From the NCBI GenBank assembly GCA_023245355.1, contig JAHFKN010000004.1:25309-89308 (forward strand): DNA of 64,000 nt, given 5' to 3'. The position numbers and the translations under genes were made by a program. The stretch comes from Candidatus Gottesmanbacteria bacterium (lineage in GTDB: Bacteria; Patescibacteriota; Microgenomatia; UBA10105; UBA927). The notes beneath the pieces are model-generated. The model made no database searches. It was not told where the DNA came from and saw nothing but the letters and a program-made list of their open reading frames with translations. Of the stretch, positions 2,514 through 55,175 are shown in pieces. Every line of letters begins with the position of its first letter. Position 1 is the stretch's first letter.

Positions 2514-2522
2514 ACTGGATAC

Positions 2523-3239: not shown

Positions 3240-3288
3240 TGCCGCTTGATCATATCAGGCGCGGTTATTGTGATGCAATAAACGGCCG

Positions 3289-4818: not shown

Positions 4819-4843
4819 GGGATAATGACACCATTGTGACACA

Positions 4844-6451: not shown

Positions 6452-6458
6452 AACACGT

Positions 6459-13120: not shown

Positions 13121-13137
13121 TCTAACCTAAACCCGGG

Positions 13138-13167
13138 TTGACTTTACACCCACCTACTTGGGATAAT
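13138..13167 (+). promoter_or_regulatory. Sigma70-like promoter candidate: TTGACT, 18-nt spacer, GATAAT
   Basis: Seen in the 54-nt divergent intergenic region. The -10 element ends 7 nt before the ATG at 13175. Confidence 0.3.
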
Positions 13168-13174
13168 CGTACCA

Positions 13175-13729: not shown

Positions 13730-13791
13730 TCCGGATATCTTCATAACCGTTTCAGTGGAATATCAGAGAACAATTCTCTATACTCACTCCT

Positions 13792-14454: not shown

Positions 14455-14499
14455 CAGAGCGATGCTTCCTCTTGGTATCTCCTCCCTGCTTCCATTACC

Positions 14500-18857: not shown

Positions 18858-18858
18858 T

Positions 18859-31100: not shown

Positions 31101-34100
31101 CATTCGTGATATCGACAACTTGTGCGCCTGCCAACACAAGCCGCGCGTTGATACCGTTTACATTTCCTTTTCCGAGCGTTGCCTCCAGACTCTCATACAA
31201 CTTACGCACATCATCAACCATTCGGTTTTGTTGTGCCGTACTAGTACCATACGTCCGCTGTGACTTGACATAAGTTACAAGCGCCTGCGTCACATCCGTT
31301 TCATACCCGAGCGAAGACACTGATACGGGGACAGCTGCGGACGGACCACTCCCGCTATTACTCACGGGAGGCAAGACCAGTATCTCACTGGGCTGTTCCT
31401 GTTGATCAGTGATGACATTGCTGCTTTGCTGCCTGCTCGCAAGATAATCCTGAATCCGTTCTGAATACCCCTTCATGGCAGGAACCTGAGACAGAAGGAG
31501 TGCTAGGGCCAACACACCGCTGACCATTTTAATCGTTACCTGCGCGAATACTTTTTCCAGCGATTCAAATACGCGCCAACCGACTGACTGCAATCCGAAC
31601 AATATGGCAAGAACGGCTGCAATCATTCCCGATATCTGCGGCAGCCGCGTCTGCACCAGTGATCCGTACTGGGGAACCATCATGGCAATCGCCGCAAGGA
31701 ACCCAAGTCCTGCCGCTATCTCAACTGCTATCAGTATGTTATTTCTGGTAAATAATCCGCTGATCTGATCACGAAGCGGTGCTATCTGCTTCCGCGGACC
31801 TGCCGGAACAAGGACGGACGGCAATAAATCTCCGCGCTGCCCCCGTGTTACTGCCGGCGTCTGACCGCGGTCTTTTGCTCCGTATATCGAACCAAGCGCG
31901 GTAATCCATTTCCTCGTATTGTTCCTGATATTTCCTTTGTAAAGGGAAGTATCAATCCCTGTTAATACCGCCGTAACGACGTCGTTGATCTCTTGGGTTT
32001 TGACCTTCTCGCCTCTTGCCAGCCGTTCTACTACTGCGCGGGCCTGTGCATTCCCGGCTATGGCGCCGACAATGATATTGGCAGCGCTGTCGCCGGTAAT
32101 GCGCGTAATCAGTCCGAATGTCCGGGCATCTGCTGTCTCCCGGACCATCGAAGTTACCAACGCTGCCCGCACGGATTCAATAAGCGGAGACACCGGGGCT
32201 CCGGAAAGATGCCGCACTACATTCTGCTGGATAAGCGCCAAATCAGAATAATTATGAACACGGATCTGATCTTCTATCGCAGTATCGACTGCAGACTGGA
32301 CGAATGTTACCCATGCTTCATGCTGACCGACGTATTCCAGCAAACGGTCCTGAATATACACGGCAAATAGAGTCTCCCAATGGTCTTGCGAGATTGCCGC
32401 CGGACGGATCGGATATGCAGTACTTACCTCACGCACAACTCTGTCACGGAATTCCGCGTCATTGCGGTCAATGACACGGCCTTCCGCAACCCACGTGCGC
32501 AAAGCTGCGCGTACCTGCGTACGGATTTCCGCTCCGCGGATTCCCATAAGGTCAGCAAACCCCTTTGTCTCTTCCGGCGTTACGCGGAATAATTCATAAG
32601 CAGCGATGAGTCTGCTCCTTAATGCGGCAATGTCTTCTGTTCTCGCCGGAGATCCGGTATCAAGGGTAGGACTGCGTAATAATTCGGTCAGCAATGCATA
32701 CTCTTCTTCATGTCCGTATGTTGCCGTCCTGTTTGCACCCCTGCCTCTGCTGATAGTTCCGATCCTGTTTTCGATAGCAGTACGGAGAACAATCTGTTCC
32801 TTTCTCAGTGCTTCAAGCTGAGAAGCGAAAATCACATTTGATTCCTCAGTCATCTCCGTACTTTGTAATTCTTCAGGAATTATCTGCGGCTCGGGCGTCT
32901 GCCGTTGTGCCGCCTGCCTGATAATTTCAGGATCTACTCCTACGGTTCTGGCCAATATTGCCGTTAACCGGGTCGCGCGCTCATTGCGTTTTGCCCGTGT
33001 GACCAACCGCTTCATTGTGTCTGACTCCATTACACGGATAAGACGCGGGGTGGCAATGGCGATATGAATTTGCTTATCCTGCGATGTGAATTCCTCCTGA
33101 TGCGATTCTATATAGGCAAGCGCTGCTCCTCCCTGAAGCTTCACTCCCTCAATAGTCGTAATTTGCAGCTGCTGGTCAAGCTGGAATCCGAGCGTCCGTA
33201 TAACAAATAACGCCATTGTCGGATTGGTAACACCAAGAATGCGTACCGGCCTGGTATACCACGGCATGCGTTGAATTTTTTCTATCGCACGGACCAAATC
33301 AACAGTTCCTAAATTGACCGACTGGACATCATATATCGCATTTTGGCTTGCGCTAAACGGCACGAAATGCATCCACATGGGTATCAAAGGAATAATCGAT
33401 TGGGAACTTTTGATACGGCGCGGAATGAATGATATGAGTGATTCAATAAACCTTGGTACACGATCATATAACCGTGATATAACGTCACTTACACGGGATC
33501 GCTCGAAAGCCACTGATCCGGTCCAGTCATAATTAGACCCGGTCATACGTGCATGGATATTTGTGTCTGTTTGGAACAACTCTTCTTCCGTTAGCGACGC
33601 TAACGCTTCGCGATATCTATCTTCAGAAAAGTTCTCGTCCGTTATTCCAAACCGCTCAGCCACTCCGGGCGGCAGCGATTCGATCAGGCGGAAATTTACC
33701 ATCTGCGGCGTTTCATAAAAATCACGCTTACTGTTGTATGGGATACCGAACTCATCGAGAATCGAGCGCGCTGCGTCGCGATTGGCTTTCGTATTTTCAA
33801 GACGGATTATATTCAGGTTCAGCCCGGAAGCGATGCCTGCTCGACGGGCTAAATCAGTCTCCGTACGGGACATTTCGAGCCGAAGAATACGTAATAATTC
33901 TTCCACAACCCGGCTCCTGTCATTTCCTGTTGTAAATATCCGCCCATGTTGTTCAATAAAGTACGTAACTTCATTCAGGGTAGAAACGACAGCATTCGTT
34001 GAAAGATTCCAGAGACGGTTCTCCGAAATCAACCGGAGCCCTGTGGTAAGCAGTACAATCGGGTTTATTTTATCGGTATCCACACCTTCTTTTTCTATAA

Positions 34101-49100: not shown

Positions 49101-52100
49101 CTTCGATCATGCCGCCTGTCACTACCTGCTCTACCGGCAACCCTGCAGCATCATAGGTACCGGTCGGTACGGAAGATTTAACGGTGCCGTCCGGATTTAC
49201 ATACTTTTGCCAGATATCAACGGCGTCAGCAAGCGCACGCTCAGCGGGTGTCATTTGCGCAGGATCTTTTGTTAATGTTTTGTCTTTTGTCGCCTGGGTG
49301 ATAATCGAATTTGTCTGCGAAACAGCTTGTGCTGCCGCCCCGATCGCTGAACCAAGACGCGTCTGTACGTCAAGCTGGAGCGCTGCCCGGTTCGTTCCGT
49401 CTACATGCACGGTTTGACCGTTAAACGTAATGTCGCTCGGAAAGATAAGTGACGCGTTGCCTAACTCTACCGCGTCTGCCAGAGCCTGTGCGCGAGCAAC
49501 AAACGGGTCATCGATCCGTACAAGATCTGCCTGAGATTGGTGCAGGGCAGACTCACCGACAGACAAACCGGCCATCATGACGTTCGTGGCACAGCTTTCA
49601 AACGGAACCGTCCCGAGTGCTGCTGCCGTACACGCGACACCCGCTTGGGCAGTGTTTACGATTTGATCGGCGCGCATCAGCGTCCGTGCAGTTGCTGACT
49701 GCGGAGCGCTGGCTACAATCGGCGCCGTAACTAAACGGCCGGCAGAAACCATGGTCATGCCGGCAGACACCAGACAATCAGCGCTTAACCCAGTCTCCGC
49801 ACAGGTCTGAATTGTTTGGCTTCCGAAAACCGCTGTCCCCAACGCATTCCGTCCCATCTGCACGGCAAGCGGCTCACTTGATCCGCTGAATACCGTCCGT
49901 GCGAGATTTTGCGTAACGGCATTGGTTTGCTGAAGTAATACTTCCTGCGTTACGGCAACACGTCCTGCTTGCCGTGCTAACACGGCCAAATCAGCTACGG
50001 CAGCGTCTGCAGGCGAAATGAGCCGCGCAACCCCCGATAGTTTACTCCCGGTCGTTAATGCAATATCAGCGCTGTCCAGCAACGTCAGCGTACCCTGCTG
50101 AATCCGTTCGATACGGGCAACCCGCGCCATGGCGTTAAGTCCCCGGGATGCCGGCAAAATGGATGATGCGGCAAACAATGTCATACCCGCTGACTGCAGA
50201 CAGGCGCTCGTGTTCATATCCGCATGCATTGTGCACACCTGTGCCGTATCCTGAGCACTGGAACCGGTCATATAAATACTCATGGACTCCCCTGCAATCG
50301 CGAGCGCTGACTGCGCAGTCAGTGCCGCAGCCCCGAGCTGCGCAATCCGAAGCGGCGGCACAACAATTGCCACGGCAGTCATAACCGGCTTTGCCGTCAT
50401 CATGACCGGTGCCCGGATATTACGGTCATACCATGATGCATTCGGATCATCCCGTATCAGCTGTCCTTCAAGTAATGCACCGTTTTCAAATTTATTAAGT
50501 CCGATTGCTACGACAGCCAGCGGATCCGTCGCAACTATATGTTCGTATGCCCGCTGACCGGCTGCGATATCTACTGTTCCGTTAAGCACTCCCTCCAATG
50601 TCACGTCCACATTGCCGGAGGATAATAAAAATCTTGCATCCTCAGACTGTATATACGCGGAAACCTGCTCATGCTGATACTTCTGGATGGCGGATATATC
50701 GGTCGTTCCGAGTTTTTGCCCTACCTGTTGCTGCAATGACTCCTGTGCCGCAGGGTTCAGATTGACTATGTATGCACTGGCCAACGCATTTGCCTGGGCA
50801 ACTTGAATCTCTTTTTTCGCCTTATCAAACGCACTCTGCTCCTCAGGGGTGATAACCCCGACGACGGACGCCTGATGCATCGCCTGTTGTGCTTTCTTAT
50901 ATTCTGCGTTTGCCGTATCCAGACTCGTTTTTAACGCGTCCATGCTGTTGTTGCCGGAAAGAGCCGCGTTCACGACCCACTGGGGATCAATCGCCATCAG
51001 ATCTTTTGCCCCCTCAATCTTATAAACGCCGGTATTGATATTGTCCGTAATCGCATACCCGACCGCTACACGGTGGGTAAGAAAATCTTCCGTCGTCTGT
51101 TTTTTGGGATCGGCCGTCTTTTTCCATGTGTCATATTCGAGTTTGAGTTCCGGATCCGTTTTAAGTTGTATTTCAAAATTCTTGATAAGATCAGGATTGG
51201 TCGTTACGGCATAATCAACAACGACGACCGCTGATTGTTGTTGCTGAAGAGTAGCAAGCTCAGGGTTTAACCTCGTGGTAAATGCGCCGTTACTGACCGA
51301 ATTTGCGACACTGACAAGCGGCATGAGCGTCTGTTTCCAGGGTTCGATTGACGCCATCGCCCTATCCACACTGCGCTCACCTGATAATACCTGATTAAGA
51401 TACGCTGCTTCGCTGACAGGATCATCCGCACGTACCAAACCTAATTGCACCAACTTCGGTTTATTTTCATAATATTGCTGCATCTGATGCTCAAGATAAT
51501 CTTCAGTTGTAGTCCCCGGATTTGCTTTCAGCCATGCCTGTGCTTCGGGATTAGCGTTTTGTGCTGCTATATAGGTTTTTTTGTTGTCCTCAGGAAGCAG
51601 CGCGACATATCCCTGCGCCTGTGTCGTTGCGTCTTTTTCACTCATCCCGAACAGGTTGTTAAATGACGTTTTGGTTTTCGTAATAACCGTGTTTAACCAT
51701 GTTTCACCGACACGGGTTGTAGTTGTGGTGGCAGGCCCATACCCGGGAGGACGGCTTGCCATAACAGGATGTAATTCGTCATAGAGCGCCGTGGGCACAA
51801 CCTTCCCGGACTGCACGTCAGCTAAAAATGACAGATATTTGCCGTCAGCTTCCAGTTCCGGCCGGAGTTTTTCAATTGCGTCCATTTGCGCCTGATCAAA
51901 TGACGCCTGCCATATCGCTTCCGTTTTCCCGGCAGTGCTTCTTCCCTGTTGTAATTGCTCTTTTTTCCACTCTTCGTAGGCACTGGAATATTCACTGTCA
52001 GGATTCATAGCAACCAGCGATTGCGGAGCTGCCTGCTGCTGTTGTTGTTGCTGCTGCTTAACCGCATCGACAATCTGCGGCGCCACCTGTTTTTCCAGTG

Positions 52101-54639
52101 CTGTCCTGATAGCCCCCGCATTTGCCGAAACACCCGCAAACATAGAATCGTTTTTGTGGGCGTTGTAATATGCAAGCACATCGGAATCCGATCCGATATA
52201 TGCTTTTGTAAGATCAATTTGTGCAAACCCGTCATTGATAGCCCCAAGTGCGGCAGACGGCATGGCGGACCGGATCGTCGCCCGGGCAGTTGCGATGTCA
52301 CCGCATTTTGACGCAGCTGACGTAGTCGTAGCCAATTGTTTACAAAGCTCCGTTTCTATGCCGGGAACGCCGTTTTGCAGGTTATATACCACATTGTCCG
52401 CCCAATTCTGCGTGATGGCACCCGCATCGGCAGCGCTCAATCCCAACGCTGCTATCTGCGCTTGTTTTTTCTTCATCGGATCACATTTCGGATCGCTTCC
52501 GCACACTGCACTGTTCGGTTTATTGAGTATGTCTGATGCTGTTTGAAAGTCTTTGAACCGTTCTACCATCGCCAGAGTATCTTCTTTGGTCACTCCGGGG
52601 TAATTAAGTGCTGCCTGTACGTTTTTCTGATATCCGGAACAGACTGAGGTATTACCGGTATTCTGATCGAGACAGTTCTGATATGCGCTTTGCGCCGTAA
52701 GATATAGATTGGATACTTTTGATACGACATAATTGTGATAACTCGCATCGAGCGATTCCGTTTGCGTCGGGTCGATACCCGCCGAAGTCAGCGCATTATT
52801 GGCCTGCTGCAAATATCCCGCACAATTCGCGTCATTTGACTGCTGCTGGGTACACAATTCATATTTTTCCCGTGCGGCAAAGTATTTATCCTGCCCTTCA
52901 TACAGTTTGACCGTTGATGTAACCTGTGTTTTTGCCAACTCCTGAAATGCCTGAGATTCGACCGTAATGCCGTATTTGGCAAAGGCTTGGGATTCACAGG
53001 AACTTTGTGTACCGCCGTTTGCTTTACATGCATAAATATCCTGTGCAGCCTGGTTAACAGTGTTTTGGAACTTCGCCGATTCTTCTGTATATTCTTTTGC
53101 CAACCCTAAACTTTTAGGAATCACGGTTAACGGACAACCGGGACACTGCGCCCACATTCCTTCGGACGGATTCTTCGGATTCCGCACACATTGCCACCGC
53201 TGGTTATCATTCATGTCAGTCGCCGGACCATACTGCTCGCCGGTGGCAACATTTCCTTCCATTATGGCCGTTCCCCCGGCGCCGCCGCATGATACGGACG
53301 CCTTCGGTTTCACCGTCGGCGACGGAGTTGTTCCGGGATTGATTGCGACCACTGTAACGATCGGAGTGATTGTGGGTCTGACAGACGGCACCGTCGTCGG
53401 CACGGTCGGAACCTTTGTCGGAATCTTTGTCGGGGGTGACGTGACTGCTGCCGGCGGCTGAGTCGGCTTGGGGGTTGCTGGGGTCGTGGGAGCCGGCTTA
53501 CACGTACCTCCCCAAACGGTATACCCATACGGGCAATTATCCGAGCAATTTTTGTTACCCCCGCCTATCAGGACGCAGTCAGACCCCGGAGGCAATGTCG
53601 GTTTGGGGGTAACCGGCGGGGTTACGGATCCCTTTGTTGTCGCGACGATGGGTGCAGTCGTAGGTTTCGGGTTACATGATCCCCACGATGATCCGTACTG
53701 ACAATCACCACACAACAAGCCGCACCACTGGTCAGGCGCATGGGTAGGTTTCGGAGTTACTTTGGGCGTCGTCGTAACGGTCGGCTTGGGCGTAGTTTTA
53801 CAGCCGACACCGAAACCTAACCAGCAAAACGGGGCAACGGTCGGCGCTCCTCCGATTCCTGCCGTCAATATCGTCGGAAACGGCTCGCATTGATTTGTGG
53901 CGACATTGTATTTGGCTTTTCCTCCGCATTGATCTTTATTCAGTGCCGTCTGAGTAAGTAACGGCGGAGGCGTAACCGTTGTGTTGACTTTCTGAGACGG
54001 AGTCGGGGTTTTGCTCGCTGAGGCCATAGCAAGACAGCTGGTACGGGCAGCCGCTGTTCTCATACGTAAACATGCGGACCTGTCAAATGCAGGCGTGGCG
54101 GTAAGACGGGGCGTTATGGTGGTACGCGGTGTTACGGTCGTGCGCGGTGTTGAAGACGCCGCAATTCCGCACTGAGTGATACACGAATACGACCCCATAC
54201 ATCGCGCCAGACAGGTGTTATACGACGTTTGTGACGTCGTTGGCGTACGCGACGGAGTCGGCGTTTTTGTGGGTGTTTTTGACGGAGTCGGCGTTTTTGT
54301 GGGTGTTTTCGTGGGTGTTTTAGTCGGTATCTTTGTCGGTGATGAATATGCGGCGAATTGCCGTAACTCTCCCGTGCGGTCACGCTGGATCCGTACAATG
54401 GCTATAAATGTCGTTGCCGCAAACAGCATGAGAAGAATAAGCGGAAGAATCCGGATAAATCCCCTGCTCTTTTGTGGGGATCCGGAAAACAAACGTCTAT
54501 AACAATCTATAAAGAAGTGGAACACCGATGAGGCTGAGGATACTTCCGGCGCATGAGCAGACGAATGTAAGTCAAATCGATTATTGAAATCTTTAGATAA
54601 ATGCTCCAAAATGAACGTCAGATCACCCGGTGTCACCAA
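22105..54639 (-). CDS. Giant mosaic membrane-anchored protein, 10,844 aa. N-terminal TM anchor, PT-repeat and Cys-rich stalk, SF2-helicase-like ATPase, internal membrane region, PPP-type metallophosphoesterase, HExxH motifs, papain-fold modules and tandem degenerate GGDEF-fold domains
   Basis: A single open frame of 32,535 nt with no stop. Residue positions were mapped by counting and cross-checked against nucleotide anchors (K861 at 52057-59, K2313 at 47701-03, H4377 at 41509-11, H5532 at 38044-46, H8925 at 27865-67). The apparent start is a non-ATG codon (TTG 54639 or GTG 54636), preceded by an AGGGG SD-like element. Confidence 0.85.
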   Translation of the reverse strand: MVTPGDLTFILEHLSKDFNNRFDLHSSAHAPEVSSASSVFHFFIDCYRRLFSGSPQKSRGFIRILPLILLMLFAATTFIAIVRIQRDRTGELRQFAAYSSPTKIPTKTPTKTPTKTPTPSKTPTKTPTPSRTPTTSQTSYNTCLARCMGSYSCITQCGIAASSTPRTTVTPRTTITPRLTATPAFDRSACLRMRTAAARTSCLAMASASKTPTPSQKVNTTVTPPPLLTQTALNKDQCGGKAKYNVATNQCEPFPTILTAGIGGAPTVAPFCWLGFGVGCKTTPKPTVTTTPKVTPKPTHAPDQWCGLLCGDCQYGSSWGSCNPKPTTAPIVATTKGSVTPPVTPKPTLPPGSDCVLIGGGNKNCSDNCPYGYTVWGGTCKPAPTTPATPKPTQPPAAVTSPPTKIPTKVPTVPTTVPSVRPTITPIVTVVAINPGTTPSPTVKPKASVSCGGAGGTAIMEGNVATGEQYGPATDMNDNQRWQCVRNPKNPSEGMWAQCPGCPLTVIPKSLGLAKEYTEESAKFQNTVNQAAQDIYACKANGGTQSSCESQAFAKYGITVESQAFQELAKTQVTSTVKLYEGQDKYFAAREKYELCTQQQSNDANCAGYLQQANNALTSAGIDPTQTESLDASYHNYVVSKVSNLYLTAQSAYQNCLDQNTGNTSVCSGYQKNVQAALNYPGVTKEDTLAMVERFKDFQTASDILNKPNSAVCGSDPKCDPMKKKQAQIAALGLSAADAGAITQNWADNVVYNLQNGVPGIETELCKQLATTTSAASKCGDIATARATIRSAMPSAALGAINDGFAQIDLTKAYIGSDSDVLAYYNAHKNDSMFAGVSANAGAIRTALEKQVAPQIVDAVKQQQQQQQQAAPQSLVAMNPDSEYSSAYEEWKKEQLQQGRSTAGKTEAIWQASFDQAQMDAIEKLRPELEADGKYLSFLADVQSGKVVPTALYDELHPVMASRPPGYGPATTTTTRVGETWLNTVITKTKTSFNNLFGMSEKDATTQAQGYVALLPEDNKKTYIAAQNANPEAQAWLKANPGTTTEDYLEHQMQQYYENKPKLVQLGLVRADDPVSEAAYLNQVLSGERSVDRAMASIEPWKQTLMPLVSVANSVSNGAFTTRLNPELATLQQQQSAVVVVDYAVTTNPDLIKNFEIQLKTDPELKLEYDTWKKTADPKKQTTEDFLTHRVAVGYAITDNINTGVYKIEGAKDLMAIDPQWVVNAALSGNNSMDALKTSLDTANAEYKKAQQAMHQASVVGVITPEEQSAFDKAKKEIQVAQANALASAYIVNLNPAAQESLQQQVGQKLGTTDISAIQKYQHEQVSAYIQSEDARFLLSSGNVDVTLEGVLNGTVDIAAGQRAYEHIVATDPLAVVAIGLNKFENGALLEGQLIRDDPNASWYDRNIRAPVMMTAKPVMTAVAIVVPPLRIAQLGAAALTAQSALAIAGESMSIYMTGSSAQDTAQVCTMHADMNTSACLQSAGMTLFAASSILPASRGLNAMARVARIERIQQGTLTLLDSADIALTTGSKLSGVARLISPADAAVADLAVLARQAGRVAVTQEVLLQQTNAVTQNLARTVFSGSSEPLAVQMGRNALGTAVFGSQTIQTCAETGLSADCLVSAGMTMVSAGRLVTAPIVASAPQSATARTLMRADQIVNTAQAGVACTAAALGTVPFESCATNVMMAGLSVGESALHQSQADLVRIDDPFVARAQALADAVELGNASLIFPSDITFNGQTVHVDGTNRAALQLDVQTRLGSAIGAAAQAVSQTNSIITQATKDKTLTKDPAQMTPAERALADAVDIWQKYVNPDGTVKSSVPTGTYDAAGLPVEQVVTGGMIEAARRSVEMSQRVVATEQAATTLHDPRSFAERVRDQVLGREPTEVRDYRAAIDAFEEIAKTTDPSSPVYSEALSHVQSAEETATTYTYTAAQKTYADQLKTTKETLVGLDEQIIAAEDRIQLFDKPDISEDIALRTKQVDDANRALTDLRARNASDEAIAIAERSVSRAQEALDRVNAVATERDLHPNVAERRTIAAQIETQELAPLQQQAKVVAAKAESLRASVAYAGTLRGKFSEFVSNITKTPNTGRGIADVLSGRAIQEQSLDARYNYIVAEERRAEAESLKRTLEAEGKPVPAELEQSIKDLEIKSADALAAFESVQARANRSLFVRISKIFGGARVADIQLRTVDTVGKLRVTAEAIRNDGFRVVRGEDNTLMLEDTTGKGRKPSRAASQRLADVSKFLDTLETNWSAINGKGTDLRMSGPNNPDGRLDQSGIFYDAIFDTQIDGSAGVMGVLYDGATGLGKSSFLLNAIADSKVVLTGTKVHVLATTWADVQGMIREYGPQVHSRNGVKAVYYNMQGREVTFFDAASNTVVTLDGKDARAVRAMADADVVYSATVETPYEFHASRADDPLTQAFLKTTKDAMLLVDEFDVIAAGTRFSSGGQMQELVSQKSPGLVQKYRSMYEANAVRSFEDMAVAVQTRKSSVELFTRSGEHNVLADNDTAQGMYRDMVTEAARQAFDASKAQGDTRSFDQFLSENRISVDDAGNPRTNPRDVVAAFDRYYKSGDTPSAFKSEFGERVGAMNAIIEHASRSTNGYGFDANNQLVYGDGGGRLQNTRPQEALAALALETVGYRIQEAMRGNNVDHSDVALRIDTVTVSNQGESSTWKQILSSGHYSPRLYGFTGTPDSVVLDAKLSLGMTLKVPNPDFTSRNLIFGDNAVRQFAWKKVSALANMIIGDLAEGQAARVILDLKEVGREIALGQVLSEARRMGPDVEVIVVNNDNNVAETRKVQVYKDGVYVRSIEGDSSGTSIEKFTAEYALKNRGNKRFIVVYDQGSGRGTDIKGVFEPHQMSPDGKTLLKGSGDPEYVFTSERTGTTTDVVQDIGRAREIAKDGTVYLLSDTDARINKEFALDIFEGNELSAKQNALTNALRQGYDDLVKNSIDLLNDISARTNGGAPLMVTREGKTMSLSEALKLEYDKVAGINDSLSQSSQLGSEAIDQAARRARDFINHIKELPEFKQLSLEARQYYFDTMYNSGERVAIAITDTAAPETRASLQNVLRVDQRTALINENIRVSDIATSVSRQGRDTAAVTTQERVEAITRAASPFADPVGQQVALDSLGRAETLVDQISRGRSLSGSDAFSLSLANVAAAQLARAKIELEAAKARLPIRTQTVDTLGTIRKGDILVGTDQSALTGAHTIENGTRVVWNAADGSEQSQTIDDTSVFTLPAGVKSVKLVTGNIETVIDVSSGPAALQTVQTISAPEFGPLYNLNSKLAQVAAQMDRLGKATSPQIAEALKKDAEKKVAEQLNKSGIQVTEDILRGSAYARAVAAFVAYEQAIARAASSLSSESLAGNPQQTVLSLADSARENLRAAMESLFVMHTPAITNAAVKQAFTDLAVVRGAAVGSDIAVSDQAEKVHIQTDSHKNVLVTSYRQRTDGIISQVIDGLSGRFVRDGIARQRRNVNGVIAATSRAKWVAARWAGVTSVGRALVSMPTAFQLAFRRVAPQYSQTRTAPNAQSLQQPQSVTTQWQDIGTAYDMSFGAHPFGLLGQVFTRLITGKGEWATPQQLGAAAVWGATRIGPFFIGQPWIGIAFLANDILLQPPTRMIAAAVRAANVALTVPTIQNFFHGDWTLPLMNSPKFSQTLKNINAGSRTGTLESMVNATPFAIGDPQWNPLRAILQTVQWTTSLVTAAPIRLAWDTYRIGRAISNRNQPALTLTSYIQSVDNWDMKGFEFFILPKAWTNATPRNNARVWLISRPLLSIAGIFFPPLHAISGPLWAYDLQRLADDGLAGWKKFWAAPNGKTVWWIPRSEWTQGSLIAPVQTTQPTTIRQFVSRVITASPRTDKAIFWISRGIALFPGPFWGARALAVFGFDLSRLVATLVASSPRALTGVENLFAKSGGLYSFLNASITKGFGGIVWYAVSRVILLPMIVAVLGMAFGAIGIAGIIPAFLVTLFVPFIIGYDTLRVGLWAHHLAQVTPRPAFSAKGTSPIMPEEQQLIQLEGELQTLLDTAASRQKEVLDAEKQLAALHADFDAINTLKNEDNPEERRRVAEEAYQQALTTQQQADEAVMSAQAALESANAQVAAIALEIESVQPVPVSPVVTAPTQEEEATILQQKNARAYTQLREAYQSKLTLAVHNIGVQMQQFARAQSEIDPVSLMSDFEGRVREEIFAKGFGSPVFRSYQIEQLVRLGLSDQEANQVYDEFGRNIIIPSLGKVTATILSGIKWDEKTIAEHVVISEIDAALYRLILADVHADPEQVEQVLLSRGAITVDAQHEWHVKDPRILMTFLGDYFDRGIKFIDGRLTVRPYLKSGYFAQYARQPGLELLRRLTTLRDEARRMGGDMLLMGGNHEVQFLWAALSDPNSPSFEGGGLFARNGVDPEEVRQARENVTSLRKLLASLDWISLRSGGDIMQHSDSAIYAKYIFMEPAFADLRDSEEVDINDLRRVRERIQALGLSADDVVKRINANISAIIARGNTTQLENLFRSLTHHGQLQGSQMLSDYYRSLFVTDVNTHAIAPRILHGHNPAAPKSYNNGTVLGLDDKLSRAYKGSDFVFLDATSPFGSQGVQRVTEEINTTVYSYRYDTPVVNTFTPETYTFAPFTVSVFDQISAFWRRPQGAQPIPSRQLTAQQQEQLQNLQARLAAANEFVRKQSEALQTARSAAQAALQAVVNAKANAESGAVIDYEAKLREIEKDIKAAEAMVSRAQDAYISGKQKADAASQLVAAQKQMNEFLETIRGQGVAIGRLDLRALWGNTSAIVQAFNNLVSSVVAREQQHLTALQALEKALVAGVVPGAGFVRDVISATTLLDSVTQAIATEEQRLAFEAGTLIVQVPVPSAPVTTTPEVDLTGYTLTGVVLPAGVAQGLGIDVIAQYTNANGTVLEIKGRVRGNGINRSTWNIDLEGVKTPVTVSESQFIYTTVYTAAPAGVSGGADVGALVANLFGANVEAQMLSSAQINPLLCSDCSDFVENVIMPLFAKAHQARSVGQTDSAIGYLNDIMSAIQQHEDNHRPGSGHEDAGKPVNTILFNIVRYLVHTKEADIFDAPDEVALADRARQNARTARALAMNAVRAELAGKSAKQANEVFAFIRAQRKADLSLIRTMTDAASAERTLTAIKAEITGQSSSVLRNLWNLAADAILGNDPLKEYEQEILEAEKKIEELKKAAPAVAPAGDTTEKKQFPPAIQSVIDRITAGRSSRQNTTLEKSVASVKLGKAATDYYEVRRFIGRYAQFTNHISDFIRANGYDKNSVLTATALRSLKSEYDRLGFDFTETEISQFTTLNTEIGSAGLIQKDMETKVAHLLGVTINLREVADEYISRMYGDAAENKRTVEGLVTLYKTSIAKQRLKNTRDGGHLDLSNLTNLQAALLQSIESRVNGGVYRDDRALTEVTDDELYLAAASMRLSYQDILSSFGTLSNYFDLNIAVHNYLNQTVEDKTGHRFAFGSGRYAVPFTVLDAKLGIVYDTADAADVVGFQSKQLSGHFVLTSQFNNTEMLVNTLAHEMIHERQVQNLSINKSQEQTYIEAFTSGLAQLVVPDAQFIAYGTGVARVLEAVNLLRKAGVEERAILDSLATTADTGYTYLLRGGSSMVPPFGTLFDSQFGQGAFKAWMSEEVSGYYQNADAWFYSPEEYSPRDHAAISGYHALYIQTAKRVFDEKPAGVALGGETVFSEAWFSGMGKGNDYAIYKRRLDRYNALIALDEFMRSEAETLTDAAQADMQGNIQITQRLMENIGNGDFSVLDQPVFDLKALVPGADTSSMEKFEAATAFFDELSTVADMEVYARLSRDTARLQQIADAIARGEYGHYGAELQEKVTQAGNKILSKLRSRYQGLSLGAEDNIDETEKLISAFDADVQKITILPEEQRKRAAGSFERKLRIQYIEASIRIIRDQESYMHKTLQDVPQQWYDAVDNQNVSELRTVTAEVRQKVQETRAAYDAWLLTEFPKAKSEEIRDQLRALVSARRAIIASPADRAADILRAAYEAELRNPGLPIFVPEDIFIRLIEETETYKNLEEAGQLRREIQDLQNFILRTIAEARTTWINEDSTPVLADAVTGIILNRFTTFHISPDKFLAAWNSKVNVKVGTIHQLMEHMIAGVDNTGPEAGETYTRLSEPILRQVFDPMVAYLGQLNQRTAAVDQTTTGGQSTLELLENGIDAYNRTAPPERRYSRRTGSQMGRYDVLQSVEERLNDFLDQLTKWGMTFDEGVPPAAPREFIATNIRQRAGREALALSRAQQQKRSRGARAMNERRRSITFAITRGIPDGWRQLIAPIVTDMLVGVMPPVGVLEAWRDPHVQVAWETLLGLFADARELAPLTPHIIRAVMRNPYRAQALLTDITAVVRALGEESWTTEAQGIGVVRESLSPLLEETVGFEAERFTGYIRHVIADRAALDEFYDLLSRVASDERLVAEARGQHRETMLRDRIRMLLIDGGIMETGINTTELESWVSEIYASLEAPAPAPQSTIRDLMDEMAARFGLDATKDNAMLDAVFADISGATGELVLPRLTDLQEELDTNPRWDEAQAAIQRQFTQVRANPDAVRALLTIYMRTLISMTVNPTAQIPAVVRQEQLTLEILEEANSGWVRSAEETEQIFRGLHAAQITTELLQQLFPNDVQYRQPTDETLAHITQTYGISEDNFAQLITDIAHYLWLLKPGEPGGKNEQPAGGAPAPGIPPREEEPIPPEITLPDAVAMLVADLQNPMAAQERMLELASDVRTIFEVTGKTSYPILLSPVQSAEQLLLSDGRSLIREEEAAVNEVPVVVDGGSGNNGLSVPRSRSDVARFTATSKLQSKDVIPMLSLRFGIDTQVLESLIEKEGVDTDKINPIVLLTTGLRLISENRLWNLSTNAVVSTLNEVTYFIEQHGRIFTTGNDRSRVVEELLRILRLEMSRTETDLARRAGIASGLNLNIIRLENTKANRDAARSILDEFGIPYNSKRDFYETPQMVNFRLIESLPPGVAERFGITDENFSEDRYREALASLTEEELFQTDTNIHARMTGSNYDWTGSVAFERSRVSDVISRLYDRVPRFIESLISFIPRRIKSSQSIIPLIPMWMHFVPFSASQNAIYDVQSVNLGTVDLVRAIEKIQRMPWYTRPVRILGVTNPTMALFVIRTLGFQLDQQLQITTIEGVKLQGGAALAYIESHQEEFTSQDKQIHIAIATPRLIRVMESDTMKRLVTRAKRNERATRLTAILARTVGVDPEIIRQAAQRQTPEPQIIPEELQSTEMTEESNVIFASQLEALRKEQIVLRTAIENRIGTISRGRGANRTATYGHEEEYALLTELLRSPTLDTGSPARTEDIAALRSRLIAAYELFRVTPEETKGFADLMGIRGAEIRTQVRAALRTWVAEGRVIDRNDAEFRDRVVREVSTAYPIRPAAISQDHWETLFAVYIQDRLLEYVGQHEAWVTFVQSAVDTAIEDQIRVHNYSDLALIQQNVVRHLSGAPVSPLIESVRAALVTSMVRETADARTFGLITRITGDSAANIIVGAIAGNAQARAVVERLARGEKVKTQEINDVVTAVLTGIDTSLYKGNIRNNTRKWITALGSIYGAKDRGQTPAVTRGQRGDLLPSVLVPAGPRKQIAPLRDQISGLFTRNNILIAVEIAAGLGFLAAIAMMVPQYGSLVQTRLPQISGMIAAVLAILFGLQSVGWRVFESLEKVFAQVTIKMVSGVLALALLLSQVPAMKGYSERIQDYLASRQQSSNVITDQQEQPSEILVLPPVSNSGSGPSAAVPVSVSSLGYETDVTQALVTYVKSQRTYGTSTAQQNRMVDDVRKLYESLEATLGKGNVNGINARLVLAGAQVVDITNEQGTVIARVVTYPSDGQPSGSLLHDDVFPSATTEERGAQTAAIPLSQIQSGLPGSKSSGYVIALPQAGGFTCYIHTLTAAISLIDAETATTGTVPVVIDPLLYAELLSPEAQSRDSLTMDPAIVEKYLNHGGGTKSEQALALLNLGVQEGKGKTEFASILKNMGYQLSDETIPVISQSKTRYEVTQSVFLEMVSKHPSIQYEIKDGKVILYVPSADLRESLLRVMMGQQEAAYKGVAHGTIISLNSSKVTEHSLVYLGFVERDGEVFVRLADGLMTSFINPSTWGVYAGIEKDEATGTYLMPVDTFLAKFKGVQVLSPAGTKPLSVPAQSAAVSQPEEVQPPVIEAQPPVAETLPQVPTALPRLPAAGARTILGPAAKTQAAIMSNVFADILNEWQSSPDRDTVTPSEALKTGLVDRGFETLARELDRADYDAYDFLDDLFTSQRNVWPDQEVQCVAFANLLVESGLVDFNIPISAIGGEVAKSMAGDELSNDPDGLVFRGEYYVLRVQSQQDLQTYGPGHFFVVYNKGSKNPGHIAYIDTNEAGIQTFTVYDANYKFANGKVTGDGIIRGETLTFDQFVAKYGAIAEGRGRSQIAILLTQEEGGALAAARQQGSVPGTNLSLSSVFVGVAYTAVQRPFRFVQRIFAGRALKSSEVAAGNPGAIQRSLRANIALARAMLRLEGQQTDKRWFTRVTASLGVMWRGLWQFDETMQVLIPQGIGKLIPASEPAPQSPQFRQQSRPWIDPQLALAAVRSGRALRNAYTPVTRPAKQFVRAAAKRVRQQACGGSALRLIPLVFAQDPQGANDCPVGRVIDSVTPIIEEGMEPPAAVILESMDPEKPVTRSVWGFQQLIPEFLQKPYLFTRFRESISAVPIRRGETFDVSEWITTMRQTPPNSWERRMTKAAFDKKYAYYRVGLARLEAEVRELLIANPQADDEAIRAVYDQYQITYGFTRPVRDEMVRIVERYRTQQQIIGRAASAYPDGQTFIKAVFGTDVGAETSMVVRGPFVIIELDAADFSKAALNAHELMHDGIVAQGVSYEGASGLHPGKTLIPAFNDSVIFINRRYGEAYGRQMVIHEMQHAVYDIIRNDGSSAPATDRLTELLRSWNTQEERREGLAAYLDARTYRYIVSTEILAYAAQRDNSFAKDSSFIIRTLTKRQADGGQYDSYPVEAGVIRAKVIREYGEEYAGEIDALLAAHMGTPQQYRQYDAMVTSGVEAVFSVRRFMSREEAVALFTHEPIERWPAVARRAGMLNQLRGVQEGVRGLFIRMQPQYPFGESLRVAIGTDDRSLVRMGLPTPTQLTAAMNDLPILRASSMRRALARGLYWLLVGIRRISSPQFAVDSRAVSEMTQWEKYMVGSLTRRERAIVLHKEYKNMRVKDDFAPQLIVNFLQFARSDAARAHNQPLFVRVNEAKNRTAYDPRELIQDEAVIAIAQADGRFRRIRVPLDREFTADEIAGLIAQGEIAADPGEAMVVIDEQPADPERYVGRYTESQNAWLRVARTGTGGIIVTGDHLVVEGVLAFRMFAALSNGILEQGTMNVPGMNTQVEDPVLQIPVDGTLRFSGVARLYAETLEALHMDFKNDSSIISPMVPTYPESSDAQNFPVELRRIQPQTLPMITPDNQWIEPDAFNTAVRAINGSQDESLLGVVFMVTNNRYIPIWLQRFLRLGLLRLPYVGPMIQAMNGTALVSYVPPVLVSEAEFDSISEYSADTVKVPDGTVFAVMDLVTPSGRRKRFASVSGNGTWTHQQLLNDFRDVFVELQQRSRTPVLQAYSAQENSFQRVQQREIVKAAIFRAFLQFINRMGDIELASQMNQILIGAPELVDLYNEYFLDALHQKQLRPLSREMFPLSIRSQVRTDWIDEVNSYGDAPQLVWTSQSWPLLSHVNRKIVKVIDIENLFGANHVLADSRTQKLLGDYLLKDMAAVFFETRIAMNDAANRFGLIRVAGDKYAIFVDESVTDTEADDFISRFGEILGTHTMFYEDGKRITSRPLGIHLSDESLAMEDVARVDQNALAAAIEGDAIYTEALDNLRRSYGLINLLIHDISLLGQTGNSVHQQFRQYMTQLTTTLLVDDLLQGPAGVLERYFRTIDANAKVLVHKNAKGAIKSAHELYPGNARLLQVSYAGTLKHVNTDLGDLAGDEMIHKQFVPIVERVFGSLGVHQIVVFHKSANDFVIFLPEGTQVDIQAFREALQHELSDLSIDGHRYYSHPSFGITDVTFANTGGESDADTENIAIFDEALGVLASRANEDALQTISAHFFENRLPKQGIPYWEWDWLRRYLHPDVTVEKRGGIRLTELGVSDREKDQLEQIAPKNKFESDEDVTRAFRWQRAIGELAGRKYQDALPWWRRLWNVLTSGPYSVNLGIMDPRVRELLGIKMGTPLSNTQQSVGAALAKAGKSLVPAFVPEVPQGATYAIGGEDVIITGPDIIVNIDGVSSQGRASADIQKEAWERAIETYRRMTGSGFDPNVFLDTDARTDRLAQIMDLYAQEMRSYNATASEKVRTTLSVILFYRKDGKQYMLDYRVGNHYRFVYNQQTKELDSVDEPRELEKADVDRILSTVKNVEEDVNNLLLMNTRLSTAQAEQAVAWARIQDDERAQYKAGSLPDDVLRSVLKTVPNLPQAIAAVKRQNSRLTPEQARTYLAWINIPTKAGKAAYQIKVTGTTGETPQMFEDDGSVANVVEREMPPGSRWIVGSDSIQKIISEGHRADVARILNDAPDESAARTQLMSAFIQWGVRNEDDLSFAVIYTPNVMIDTNAAQVKESPLQPPSARLTPSASIDVYLTQATPMRIQVIGEQLIVHRDYDNRDIMKNGQVMSGGDVPLFVGDRLHVLNDPITYEVSIDEKGMLVLLDIGAAAGSEDHSIDIAVPVPESAKKNIVRGYLAYQIEDPAGPTDAEGWFSWVGPVSDELAIDVGQANRKRTVSFTPNKKDIDEKLLSVFGTVPKDTWIPMYRTSDRIPIGELRITVTGIVTIHVFVRNGENTELEIKK
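24340..25422 (-). other. Giant protein: tandem degenerate GGDEF-fold (nucleotide-cyclase palm) domains (aa ~9740-10100)
   Basis: Domain 2 reads VSYAGTLKHVNTDLGDLAGDEMIHKQFVPIVERVF...VVFHKSANDFVIFLPEGTQVDIQAFREALQHEL, aligning with GGDEF consensus blocks (DIDhFKxINDtyGHxaGDevL ... RyGGDEFaillP.t..e.a...ae.iR). Domain 1 reads IDIENLFGANHVLAD...LIRVAGDKYAIFVDE. The GGDEF signature is replaced by SANDF and AGDKY. Confidence 0.55.
27853..28023 (-). other. Giant protein: paired HExxH motifs 52 aa apart (NAHELMHDG aa 8873-8877; VIHEMQHAVYD aa 8925-8929)
   Basis: Two HExxH motifs in 'AHExxH' contexts. About 0.3 HExxH are expected by chance in 10.8 kaa, and three are observed. Confidence 0.4.
29410..29772 (-). 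other. Giant protein: putative papain-fold Cys/His module 2 (aa ~8290-8410; QCVAFANLL ... GHFFVVYNKG...GHIAYID...VYDANY)
   Basis: The Cys8301 to His8367 spacing (~66 aa) and an HFFVVY beta strand followed by D/N resemble C39/transglutaminase-like papain-fold peptidases. Confidence 0.4.
30295..30927 (-). other. Giant protein: putative papain-fold Cys/His module 1 (aa ~7905-8115; GGFTCYIHTL ... HSLVYLGFVERDGEVFVRLADG)
   Basis: Cys in a GxxC context followed by a His-hydrophobic beta strand resembling the C39-like 'HwvVl..........DP' pattern. Weak. Confidence 0.3.
31465..31743 (-). other. Giant protein: second TM cluster (aa 7633-7725), three hydrophobic helices
   Basis: ILIAVEIAAGLGFLAAIAMMVP, ISGMIAAVLAILFGLQSVGW and FAQVTIKMVSGVLALALLLSQV. 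Confidence 0.5.
38032..38046 (-). other. Giant protein: HExxH motif 1 (LAHEMIHERQ, aa 5532-5536), zincin-like candidate
   Basis: A HEMIH pentapeptide with a Q three residues after the second His. Confidence 0.35.
40960..41832 (-). other. Giant protein: calcineurin-like/PPP-family metallophosphoesterase domain (aa ~4270-4560)
   Basis: Motifs in canonical order and spacing: DVHAD (4277-4281), GDYFDRG (4316-4322), GNHE (4375-4378), LHGHN (4549-4553). Confidence 0.7.
42685..43960 (-). other. Giant protein: internal membrane-embedded region (aa ~3560-3985) with Trp-rich hydrophobic segments and a clear TM hairpin
   Basis: GIVWYAVSRVILLPMIVAVLGMAFGAIGIAGIIPAFLVTLFVPFIIG (aa 3938-3984), preceded by WxxW-rich hydrophobic stretches (FFIGQPWIGIAFL, IFWISRGIALFPGPFWG). 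Confidence 0.55.
46060..47742 (-). other. Giant protein: SF2 helicase-like ATPase module (aa ~2300-2860), ResIII/HsdR-like motif set
   Basis: Walker A GATGLGKSS (aa 2307-2315), Walker B/DExD LLVDEFD (2436-2441), motif III-like GFTGTP (2693-2698) and motif VI-like QGSGRGTD (2846-2853). Confidence 0.5.
52041..52064. repeat. Trinucleotide run (CTG)3(TTG)3(CTG)2 encoding poly-Q8 (aa 862-869)
   Basis: ctgctgctgttgttgttgctgctg on the plus strand, equal to (CAG/CAA)8 on the coding strand. Confidence 0.8.
53110..54357 (-). other. Giant protein: mucin-like stalk (aa 95-510) of PTKTPT repeats and P/T-rich linkers separating small Cys-rich modules
   Basis: PTKIPTKTPTKTPTKTPTPSKTPTKTPTPS, followed by modules such as CLARCMGSYSCITQCG, CGGKAKYNVATNQCEP, WCGLLCGDCQYGSSWGSCNP and CVLIGGGNKNCSDNCPYGYTVWGGTC. 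Confidence 0.7.
54251..54310. repeat. Perfect 30-nt tandem direct repeat (x2, 1 mismatch) encoding KTPTKTPTPS
   Basis: The unit gacggagtcggcgtttttgtgggtgttttt occurs at 54251-54280 and again at 54281-54310. Confidence 0.8.
54394..54459 (-). other. Giant protein: N-terminal signal-anchor TM helix (aa 61-82, FIRILPLILLMLFAATTFIAIV)
   Basis: A 22-residue hydrophobic stretch preceded by basic residues (KSRG), which fits an N-in orientation. Confidence 0.6.
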
Positions 54640-54758
54640 ACCCCTACAACATCAGGTGGTCTCTTATTACTATGATGAAGTTACGTGCGTAGTGTCAATA
54701 GTCCACTTTCGGGTATTGACAAATATAAAATTTCTCTCCAAACTAAAACGTAGAGAGT

Positions 54759-54974: not shown

Positions 54975-54997
54975 TCGTTACGAGTGGTTTTTACCAA

Positions 54998-55023
54998 AAA
55001 GAAGCCCGGAGGCTTCTTTTTTT
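54998..55023. terminator. Bidirectional rho-independent terminator (stem aaaGAAGCC / GGCTTCttt, loop cgga, flanked by A-run and T-run)
   Basis: Perfect 9-bp stem with T7 on the plus strand and A/T-run symmetry. It sits 2 nt past the 3' end of the tRNA pair (minus strand) and 24 nt after the small plus-strand ORF. Confidence 0.65.
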
Positions 55024-55024
55024 G

Positions 55025-55095
55025 TGGACCCGAGGGGAATCGAACCCCTTTTTGAACTATGCCATAGTTCCGTACTACCGGTATACGACGGGCCC
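55025..55095 (-). tRNA. tRNA-Ala (anticodon GGC)
   Basis: Hand-folded. Acceptor GGGCCCG/CGGGTCC with the G3:U70 Ala identity pair, anticodon stem GAACT/AGTTC, loop ATGGCAT, T-arm AGGGG-TTCGATT-CCCCT. No encoded CCA. Confidence 0.8.
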
Positions 55096-55102
55096 TGACA
55101 AG

Positions 55103-55175
55103 TGGACCTGACCGGAGTCGAACCGGTGATCTCCGCAATGCGAATGCGGCGCTCTACCAACTAAGCTACAGGCCC
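55103..55175 (-). tRNA. tRNA-Ala (anticodon CGC)
   Basis: Hand-folded. GGGCCTG acceptor with G3:U70, D-arm GCTTAGTTGGTAGAGC, anticodon stem CCGCA/TGCGG, loop TTCGCAT, T-arm CCGGTTCGACTCCGG. 7 nt from the neighbouring tRNA. Confidence 0.85.

Follow-up and report, generated by a model that had tools for sequence, protein, structure and literature searches.

The window analysed here, a stretch of 64,000 nucleotides from Candidatus Gottesmanbacteria (contig JAHFKN010000004.1 of assembly GCA_023245355.1, positions 25,309 to 89,308), contains a giant open reading frame (ORF) on the minus strand at window positions 22105-54639, which is uninterrupted over 32.5 kb and encodes a protein of 10,844 amino acids (aa). 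This protein very probably inserts into the membrane at several sites that lie far apart. Six helices of transmembrane (TM) grade were identified in it, arranged in three widely separated groups of one (TM1), two (hairpin D) and three (cluster E) helices. To a broader reading we give even chances: a polytopic giant with a signal-anchor, an exported stalk, the membrane clusters D and E and a cytoplasmic SecA-type motor, for which a working topology is presented below. The features of the giant are given in window positions and all lie on the minus strand. Residues are counted from the TTG codon at position 54639, both here and in an earlier annotation of the same DNA that was made from the sequence alone (the first-pass annotation).

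TM-grade helices were defined as 19-residue windows with a Kyte-Doolittle (KD) mean of at least 1.9 and an additive Hessa sum of at most 5. Both scales pick the same six segments, at aa 64-82, aa 3947-3965 and 3966-3985, and aa 7635-7653, 7669-7687 and 7698-7716. When the Hessa threshold was applied to other proteins encoded in the window, it gave no TM-grade segments in Rho, the DegT aminotransferase, the GT2 glycosyltransferase and the RmlC-like epimerase, one false-positive segment in a flavin adenine dinucleotide (FAD) oxidase, at its N-terminal Rossmann motif, and 7-14 segments in the polytopic PMT_2, YfhO and DUF2298 proteins. Scans with the Wimley-White octanol scale and in the style of Goldman-Engelman-Steitz (GES)/TopPred over-call, with dozens of segments that include T/G/V-rich ones, and were excluded from the counting. 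The helices that the first-pass annotation had placed at aa 61-82, 3938-3984 and 7633-7725 are borne out as TM1 (aa 64-82), hairpin D (aa 3947-3985) and cluster E (aa 7633-7719), and the nucleotide positions given there for the hairpin, 42685-42831, are correct. The same annotation had asked whether the segments might be amphipathic helices of soluble domains. All six helices are non-amphipathic, with Eisenberg mean hydrophobicities (<H>) of 0.49-0.88 and hydrophobic moments (muH) of 0.05-0.22.

A reading in which the internal segments are buried helices of soluble domains, with TM1 as the sole membrane anchor, is nevertheless suggested by three observations. Simple shuffles of the giant yield more hydrophobic 19-mers (mean 12) than the real protein, one soluble enzyme of the window, the FAD oxidase, is a false positive, and the GES-based scan over-calls many T/G/V-rich segments. 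However, a null based on single 19-mers is unsuitable, since the shuffles exceed the real protein, and at the level of clusters both D and E surpass every shuffle. The mean KD over 45 residues is 2.22 at aa 3939-3983, as compared to a maximum of 2.01 in 500 shuffles. Over 89 residues, aa 7634-7722 have a mean of 1.26 and aa 3896-3984 a mean of 1.36, while the shuffle maximum is 1.18. The longest run without polar residues comprises the 39 residues at aa 3947-3985, as compared to at most 36 in the shuffles. TM1 by itself is not beyond chance by composition. The low moments, the conservation of hydrophobicity at 52% identity and the loops of 3-12 residues between the helices, as in membrane bundles, also argue against buried helices, and we consider this reading very unlikely.

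The homologues cover different parts of the protein. L082/L083 (ENA ERZ27237541, GCA_027341155.1) are 89% identical to it over aa 1-4114, L014 (genome contigs) 65% over aa 1-1964, L002 (JBMOPU010000012.1) 33% over aa 26-2101, L003 (genome contigs) 35% over aa 872-2763 and L084 (ENA ERZ1300416) about 30-42%. The remaining part is covered by L087, a JGI contig that is open over all 7,034 codons present and corresponds to aa 3779-10842 at 58-86% identity, and by the low-coverage contig L085, which corresponds to aa 7403-7772 at 52%.

Hairpin D (aa 3947-3985; positions 42685-42801) consists of two TM-grade helices connected by a turn of about three residues, with a KD of 2.47 and Hessa sums of -1.3 and +1.0. 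An AlphaFold2 (AF2) model of aa 3530-4010 inferred from the single sequence is poor, with an overall predicted local distance difference test (pLDDT) score of 39, and the only part that reaches 52-67 is the hairpin, which is modelled as two long helices with a 3-residue turn. The hairpin is 92% identical in L082 and 88% identical in L087. It represents the longer fourth copy, with a 39-residue core, of a motif that is composed of W-x(1-3)-[ST]R, 18-23 hydrophobic residues with a central Pro or Gly, and D-[IL]-x-[RL]. Copy A (aa 3598-3625; positions 43765-43848), located within W-GAT-R-IGPFFIGQPWIGIAFLAN-DILL, is conserved in the distant homologue L084 as LAVWTTLRVAVPFGIGLVNPLAAGYYVTATWGWDIARF. 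Copy B (aa 3774-3806; positions 43222-43320), WLISR-PLLSIAGIFFPPLHAISGPLWAY-DLQRL, is conserved in L084 (VWALTRVGLFLTPFPLSTISHSLWAYDVHRF), L082 and L087, and copy C (aa 3871-3901; positions 42937-43029), WISR-GIALFPGPFWGARALAVFGF-DLSRLVA, is conserved in L082 and L087 and was not seen in L084. Taken together, the region from copy A to hairpin D shows about 91% identity to L082. The three copies before the hairpin are moderately hydrophobic and proline-kinked (KD 1.0-1.5, Hessa sums 6-7). Thus, of the hydrophobic region that the first-pass annotation had drawn at aa ~3560-3985, the hairpin stands as TM-grade and the stretch before it does not.

Directly after the hairpin follows a hypervariable, coiled-coil-like segment (aa 3992-4659; positions 40663-42666). 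Identity to L082 and L087 drops to 28-36% in its first part, aa 3992-4114, while it is 85-95% elsewhere, and no alignment was obtained for aa 4115-4659. The hypervariability is restricted to the segment between D and E, where a second poorly aligned zone is located at aa ~6238-7247. The hypervariable zones suggest diversifying selection or cassette replacement.

Cluster E contains the helices E1 (aa 7633-7657; positions 31669-31743; KD 2.36, Hessa 0.04, <H> 0.82, muH 0.05), E2 (aa 7666-7688; positions 31576-31644; KD 1.95, Hessa sum 2.1) and E3 (aa 7697-7719; positions 31483-31551; KD 1.94-1.96, Hessa 2.8, <H> 0.49). The hydrophobicity of all three helices is conserved in L085, which is 52% identical here, and in L087, which is 85% identical, as are the internal Glu of E1 and the internal Lys of E3. 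At the 52% identity of L085, the substitutions in the cluster are hydrophobic for hydrophobic.

TM1 (aa 64-82, ILPLILLMLFAATTFIAIV; positions 54394-54450) is a helix of the signal-anchor type with a KD of 2.69, a Hessa sum of -2.6, an <H> of 0.75 and a muH of 0.18. The hydrophobic helix is kept in five homologues and is followed by a conserved ERTGE[IL]RQFA. Just before it is the motif FHFFIDCY (aa 40-47; positions 54499-54522), of which FFIDC is invariant in the window protein, L082, L014, L002 and L003, and which reads YFFIDCY in L084. The 15 residues before the helix include four K/R, a feature of type II signal-anchors, but three K/R are also found after the helix, and the charges do not decide its orientation. 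Downstream of TM1 there are linkers of proline-threonine (PT) repeats and a region rich in Cys pairs (aa ~99-800; positions 52240-54345), in which P and T make up to 32% and Cys 3-6% of the residues per 200 aa. The Cys residues of these pairs are spaced about 4-13 residues apart. Altogether, 38 of the 45 Cys residues of the protein are located in pairs within aa 143-1683, corresponding to 2.3% Cys in the N-terminal Cys-rich region as compared to 0.07% in the remaining 9,100 residues, and the homologues are comparably Cys-rich in this region. Because of the PT repeats and the paired Cys, the N-terminal 1,700 residues look exported.

Further downstream is a conserved region of Cys pairs and small residues (aa 1400-1720; positions 49480-50442). 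Here, the alignment of five homologues reveals a unit that occurs three times and is composed of two Cys at a spacing of 9-13 residues, then S-x-GM[TA], then a stretch of residues that are small and hydrophobic. The unit is conserved across the five homologues, down to about 30% identity. The hydrophobic segments are rich in Ala, Gly and Ser and marginal (aa 1410-1452, 1478-1498, 1622-1642 and 1663-1683), with Hessa sums of 5-7, KD values of 1.1-1.7, GES/TopPred-style values of 1.0-1.5 and <H> of 0.37-0.53, and were not listed in the first-pass annotation. Outside of the module, a lone CxxC is present at aa 4991-4994 (positions 39658-39669) in an otherwise Cys-free stretch of 9,000 residues. 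It is kept in L087 (Cys 1026/1029) and adjoins T/G/V-rich, beta-like segments at aa 4853-4963.

The region between the stalk and the hairpin contains a P-loop NTPase region that is SecA-like by its motifs (aa 2285-2920; positions 45880-47787). The motifs are GATGLGKS (aa 2307-2314), LTGTKVHVLA, VVYSATVETPYEFHASR, MLLVDEFD (aa ~2432-2439), LYGFTGTP (aa ~2690-2697) and SGRGTDI (aa 2849-2855), with GATGLGKS as the Walker A motif and LLVDEFD as a Walker B motif of the DExD type. The forms found in SecA, TGxGKT, VHVVT, TYGTNNEFGFDYLRD, DEVD, GMTGTA and GRGTDI, have colinear counterparts in the giant, GATGLGKS, VHVLA, VYSATVETPYEFHASR, DEFD, GFTGTP and GRGTDI, which are conserved in the homologues. 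The region is 52% identical to its counterpart in L003, against a background of about 35%, and 95% identical in L082. An insertion of about 250 residues separates motifs II and III, at the position of the preprotein-binding domain in SecA and of a suitable size for it. The first half of the region was aligned by hhalign to residues 78-215 of E. coli SecA (31% identity over 132 columns, P 0.037), and the second half, in an independent alignment, to SecA 386-399 with the GMTGTA motif (P 0.077). A Smith-Waterman alignment to SecA is colinear through the motifs, with a score of 118 as compared to 72 +/- 12 (z = 3.9), and none of 300 shuffles reaches this score, their maximum being 106. A BLASTP comparison of E. 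coli SecA with the giant was not significant, and the only exact match to a motif was GRGTDI at SecA 507-513.

The assignment to SecA is weakened by the profile and structure searches. The region was not detected with the hidden Markov models (HMMs) of Pfam, NCBIfam or the PDB, and PF07517 (SecA_DEAD) gave no Pfam match to the isolated region even at E<=10. A family HMM of the region did not score E. coli SecA above 2,000 shuffles, a profile search of the PDB with the region returned nothing, and an AF2 model based on a four-sequence alignment had a pLDDT of 36 and was unusable. A Foldseek search with this model gave no match at E<0.6, but is meaningless at such a pLDDT. No PF07516 match for the helical scaffold and wing domains was found in the giant, nor was the C-terminal linker of SecA recognised. 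Judging by the motifs, aa 2285-2920 is a conserved P-loop ATPase, which is probably, although not demonstrably, SecA-like. What the first-pass annotation had described as a helicase thus persists as a conserved Walker A/B region with SecA-like motifs, but has no significance in the HMM libraries. The palm domains of the same annotation were not recovered, with no match in Pfam, NCBIfam, PHROGs or the PDB and no motif of the [YFS]GDD/GDD type. In fact, nearly all of the sequence of the giant is beyond the reach of current domain libraries: no significant family was identified anywhere with Pfam (pieces of the whole protein, E<=0.01 and E<=1), NCBIfam or PHROGs, phmmer searches of the PDB with three pieces returned nothing, and no internal repeats were detected by self-BLAST.

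The exported-type stalk and the ATP-dependent module are probably located on opposite sides of the membrane. The first-pass annotation had proposed such a split, and the chain does contain both an exported-type and a cytoplasm-type module, but the split cannot be derived from the clusters listed there, since none is located between the PT/Cys stalk and the NTPase. The two-helix hairpin D alone returns the chain to the same side, while the odd number of helices in cluster E places the flanking segments, aa 3992-7632 and aa 7720-10844, on opposite sides if all three span the membrane. Candidates for a crossing between the stalk and the ATPase are limited to the marginal segments at aa 1410-1690; from aa 1690 to 3500 the chain lacks hydrophobic segments altogether, whatever their grade. 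The envelope-spanning machine that the first-pass annotation considered this architecture to suit is conjectural.

A working topology, speculative but self-consistent, may be outlined as follows. Bacteria belonging to the candidate phyla radiation (CPR) are monoderm. The signal-anchor at aa 64-82 would export the PT-linked, Cys-rich stalk of the disulfide type, placing aa 85 to ~1400 outside, and the Ala/Gly/Ser-rich marginal segments at aa 1410-1690 would cross the membrane. The following segment, aa ~1700-3597, would be inside and include the P-loop ATPase between the stalk and the hairpin, most probably a very divergent SecA-type motor, which would face the cytoplasm since it must face ATP. 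Copies A-C and hairpin D would together make an odd number of crossings (five), so that aa 3992-7632, starting with the hypervariable coiled-coil stalk, would be outside. The three E helices would then cross, and aa 7720-10844 would be inside. The hairpin at aa 3947-3985 and the helices at aa 7633-7719 would in this manner hold the chain at the membrane at points that lie thousands of residues downstream of the signal-anchor. The built-in motor may help to push the long external segments of the giant itself through the Sec channel, as proposed for the giants of the Omnitrophota, and the exposed parts may mediate contact with a host cell.

Several observations weigh against this topology. The marginal segments must cross, since no TM-grade helix is found between the Cys/PT module and the ATPase, and if they do, one conserved Cys pair would face the cytoplasm. 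The counts of positive charges around the six helices do not discriminate between orientations at any cluster. The segments aa 1721-3539, 3992-7632 and 7722-10844 are near-identical in composition and show no sign of belonging to different compartments. The TM-grade hairpin is absent from L084, of which 3,324 residues are seen. Finally, E3 is the weakest of the six helices and contains an internal Lys, and cluster E might be a hairpin with an interfacial helix.

The main rival to the proposed topology is a mostly cytoplasmic giant, in which only the N-terminal ~1,600 residues are outside and aa ~1700-10844 are held against the cytoplasmic face of the membrane by hairpins. Here, D would be a two-helix hairpin, E a hairpin with an interfacial helix, and copies A-C re-entrant or peripheral. 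The composition of the three long segments after aa 1720, which is cytoplasm-like, the turn of only about three uncharged residues in D, the weakness of E3 with its Lys and the need of the ATPase for the cytoplasm are all consistent with such an arrangement, as are copies A-C, whose proline-kinked stretches of 18-23 residues are too polar for clear TM helices. However, the crossing at aa 1410-1690 is still required and remains unexplained in this arrangement. Furthermore, the hydrophobicity of all three E helices is conserved and their loops of 10-12 residues are typical of a spanning bundle, while a hypervariable stretch like that after D is more typical of exposed surfaces. We consider a mostly cytoplasmic giant doubtful, although a serious possibility.

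An exhaustive HMMER search identified a related giant, MCL4200211.1, a protein of 7,694 aa from a metagenome-assembled genome of the Patescibacteria that is annotated as 'GNAT family N-acetyltransferase'. It has two modules in common with the window protein (E 6e-49, 31% identity over 442 columns, and E 2e-29, 24% over 637 columns), which occur in the opposite order. Similar to the window protein, it contains a tight TM hairpin (aa 1387-1426), a Cys-rich module of the exported type and a motor of the SecA type, the latter being probable in the window protein. The motor is here recognised by Pfam, with a significant match to SecA_DEAD at aa ~2695-3410 (E 1.6e-10, 41 bits as compared to a cut-off of 24.6) and weaker matches to P-loop_SecA and SecA_SW. 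The Cys-rich module is C-terminal in MCL4200211.1 and N-terminal in the window protein, and unlike the window protein the recorded sequence, which is possibly truncated, has no N-terminal TM helix. No TM-grade helix is located between the SecA domain and the Cys-rich module. The match between the ATPase of the window protein and the SecA_DEAD domain of MCL4200211.1 is weak (BLASTP E >1; hhalign P 0.009 at Walker A).

That one chain carries both an exported-type module and an ATPase, without any TM helix to separate the two, is a paradox, and it poses a testable question about how very long chains are threaded through membranes. A bolder version of the proposed topology, which we regard as rather unlikely, is that the CPR bacteria have their own, hitherto undescribed class of self-exporting giants of the envelope, in which an extremely divergent SecA-type motor at the cytoplasmic side would feed thousands of residues of the same chain outward and the crossings would partly be made by unconventional, weakly hydrophobic segments, namely the Cys-paired aa 1410-1690 and the proline-kinked W..SR repeats at aa 3598-3901. 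If true, such a class would explain why no classical TM helix separates the exported-type and ATP-dependent modules in either the window protein or MCL4200211.1.

The missing helix in both giants would also fit an exported effector or adhesin, in which the whole chain after TM1 is outside of the producer and D and E insert into the membrane of a host cell, similar to the hydrophobic hairpins of translocators and pore-forming toxins, with the ATPase in the host cytoplasm or vestigial. Consistent with this, hairpin D is lineage-specific, Cys is almost absent from 9,000 residues, and CPR bacteria live as episymbionts and possess surface proteins of giant size (PMC8080830). However, the hydrophobic segments would be expected to lodge in the membrane of the producer. 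Segments of such hydrophobicity serve as stop-transfer signals during Sec translocation. The strong conservation of the ATPase motifs also argues for use where the cell controls ATP, and the scanned neighbours included no recognisable genes of a secretion system. We find an effector or adhesin improbable.

The likely start codon of the gene is GTG at position 54636 or TTG at position 54639. Directly before these codons there is a Shine-Dalgarno-like site, GTAGGGG, at positions 54641-54647, preceded by an in-frame TGA at positions 54652-54654 and a promoter-like TTGACA...CATAGT at positions 54698-54669. The public gene call (ENA ERZ27279977 k141_6951596, 118 kb) begins at the ATG of codon 148. 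In L082 (89% identity) and L014 (65%), conservation of the frame extends back to codon 1. Given the in-frame TGA, the ribosome-binding-like site, the promoter-like sequence and the conservation of the first 100 residues from codon 1, the public call is too short and the N-terminus has been cut off. It omits aa 1-147 (positions 54197-54639), and thereby the FHFFIDCY motif, TM1 and the first PT repeats. The call instead places short, spurious ORFs on the opposite strand. Two practical lessons emerge: public gene calls can truncate the N-terminus and thus lose the signal-anchor, and a related giant is hidden under the annotation of a GNAT acetyltransferase.

The relatives of the adjacent Rho are from the Patescibacteria, in the Microgenomates group, and mostly from Candidatus Gottesmanbacteria. 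In several of these relatives, a homologous giant gene is located downstream of rho and a gene for an M23/LysM peptidase. The syntenic homologues in other Gottesmanbacteria metagenomes indicate that the gene is real, chromosomal and vertically inherited. A tape-measure protein of a phage or a polyvalent protein of a mobile element was also considered, and dropped in view of the chromosomal synteny by rho, the lack of a PHROG match and the implausible length.

Some of the homologues are interrupted. L082 has an in-frame TAA at 12680-12682, which is present at the same position in L083 (two records of one lineage), and the gene in L084 is broken by frameshifts or stops at 4105-4188, ~8460-8530 and 10869-10871. 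In the interrupted homologues, the gene is split into 2-4 called genes, and the breaks could be due to assembly errors, decay or programmed read-through. Those in L085, which has a coverage of 1.2x, are probably sequencing errors. The in-frame TAA and the frameshifts in L084 and L085 raise the question whether the giant, instead of being one functional polypeptide, stems from a gene that is fused, misassembled or in decay. Given that the ORF of the window is uninterrupted, that L087 is open throughout with the same order of modules, and that identical module junctions recur in independent metagenomes, we judge such an artefact highly improbable. A 700-aa query around the hairpin had no match in a homologous-protein database search, and two other such searches gave fragments only; that database seems to lack pieces of giant genes from the ends of contigs.

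The neighbours of the giant gene that were scanned include glycosyltransferases, the M23 peptidase, Rho and PIG-L, and no genes for type II secretion, pili or other secretion systems were recognised among them. The neighbourhood (positions 3289-16083, 17001-21207 and 58498-60708) is crowded with proteins in which the same definition finds 7-14 TM-grade segments, such as two PMT_2 proteins, a YfhO-like protein, a DUF2298 protein and several without a Pfam match. Sugar-nucleotide enzymes and a PIG-L deacetylase are also encoded there, as is a protein with an NPCBM domain and 11 TM helices at its N-terminus. The enzymes in the neighbourhood could glycosylate the PT-rich stalk of the giant at the outer face of the membrane. 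Two tandem tRNA-Ala genes with anticodons GGC and CGC are located on the minus strand at positions 55024-55175, between the M23/LysM peptidase gene and the giant gene. They are followed by a terminator-like hairpin and a T-run at ~54995-55020, as seen by eye, where the terminator scan made no call. Of the 32 consecutive 2-kb segments that make up the whole window, 31 have a negative GC skew, irrespective of the coding strand, and the cumulative skew declines almost steadily to -3.09.

The window protein was compared to proteins of known architecture. For SecA itself (PF07517, PF01043, PF21090, PF07516), the motifs Q, I, Ia, Ib, II, III and V have apparent counterparts in the ATPase in colinear order, and a VI-like stretch was recognised there by eye. 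Unlike SecA, however, which is a free protein of 900 aa, the ATPase is embedded in a chain of 10.8 kaa (thousand residues) and has no HMM or structural support. The CPR giants described so far are shorter and adhesin-like (PMC8080830). Those of Vampirococcus lugosii are surface proteins of 1.4-4.2 kaa with WD40, PKD, integrin and fibronectin domains (PMC8080830). They resemble the window protein in that they are very large, membrane-localised proteins of a CPR lineage with a presumed role in host recognition or attachment, but the window protein is 2.5 to 8 times longer, has no adhesion domains and contains internal TM clusters and an ATPase.

The closest precedent, by architecture, is the giants of the Omnitrophota ('Archaeovorins' and relatives). 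Their full-length genes code for proteins with numerous TM regions and with SecA DEAD domains that are mostly divergent, the scaffold and wing domains of SecA being missing also there (West-Roberts et al., bioRxiv 10.1101/2023.11.21.568195). The authors proposed that the SecA domains may aid the secretion of the giant itself, and noted that the predictions of TM regions and localisation are unreliable (bioRxiv 10.1101/2023.11.21.568195). A 2026 survey found TM helices or signal peptides in 94% of 916 long Omnitrophota proteins and identified an architecture cluster with SecA DEAD (bioRxiv 10.64898/2026.06.07.730766). The Patescibacteria are not mentioned in the text of either study (bioRxiv 10.1101/2023.11.21.568195 and 10.64898/2026.06.07.730766). 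Like the Omnitrophota giants, the window protein exceeds 10,000 aa, comes from a bacterium that is ultra-small and probably dependent on a host, has several TM regions separated by long stretches and probably includes a divergent SecA-like ATPase within its chain. Recognisable domains are missing from most of the sequence in both, and the predicted localisations appear contradictory. The window protein differs in its phylum, the Patescibacteria, in having no Pfam match to SecA_DEAD and no dockerin/TSP3, C39 or S8 domains, and in having six clear TM helices instead of dozens, far fewer than the largest examples. Nor were type II secretion or pilus genes recognised among its scanned neighbours. 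Since the SecA_DEAD HMM, the taxonomy and the gene context all depart from those of the Omnitrophota giants, the window protein is a variant of this type and not a member of it.

The architecture has a precedent, and what makes the protein worth attention is its occurrence in the CPR, the near-total lack of recognisable domains and the paradox of inside and outside. The gene takes up 32.5 kb of a genome of probably about 1 Mb, and the protein must therefore matter to the organism. Until now, descriptions of giants that combine multiple TM regions with a SecA-like domain have come essentially from the Omnitrophota. If the same design is truly present in the Gottesmanbacteria, it would suggest either convergence or an ancient shared solution of ultra-small, host-dependent bacteria for assembling and exporting enormous surface structures.

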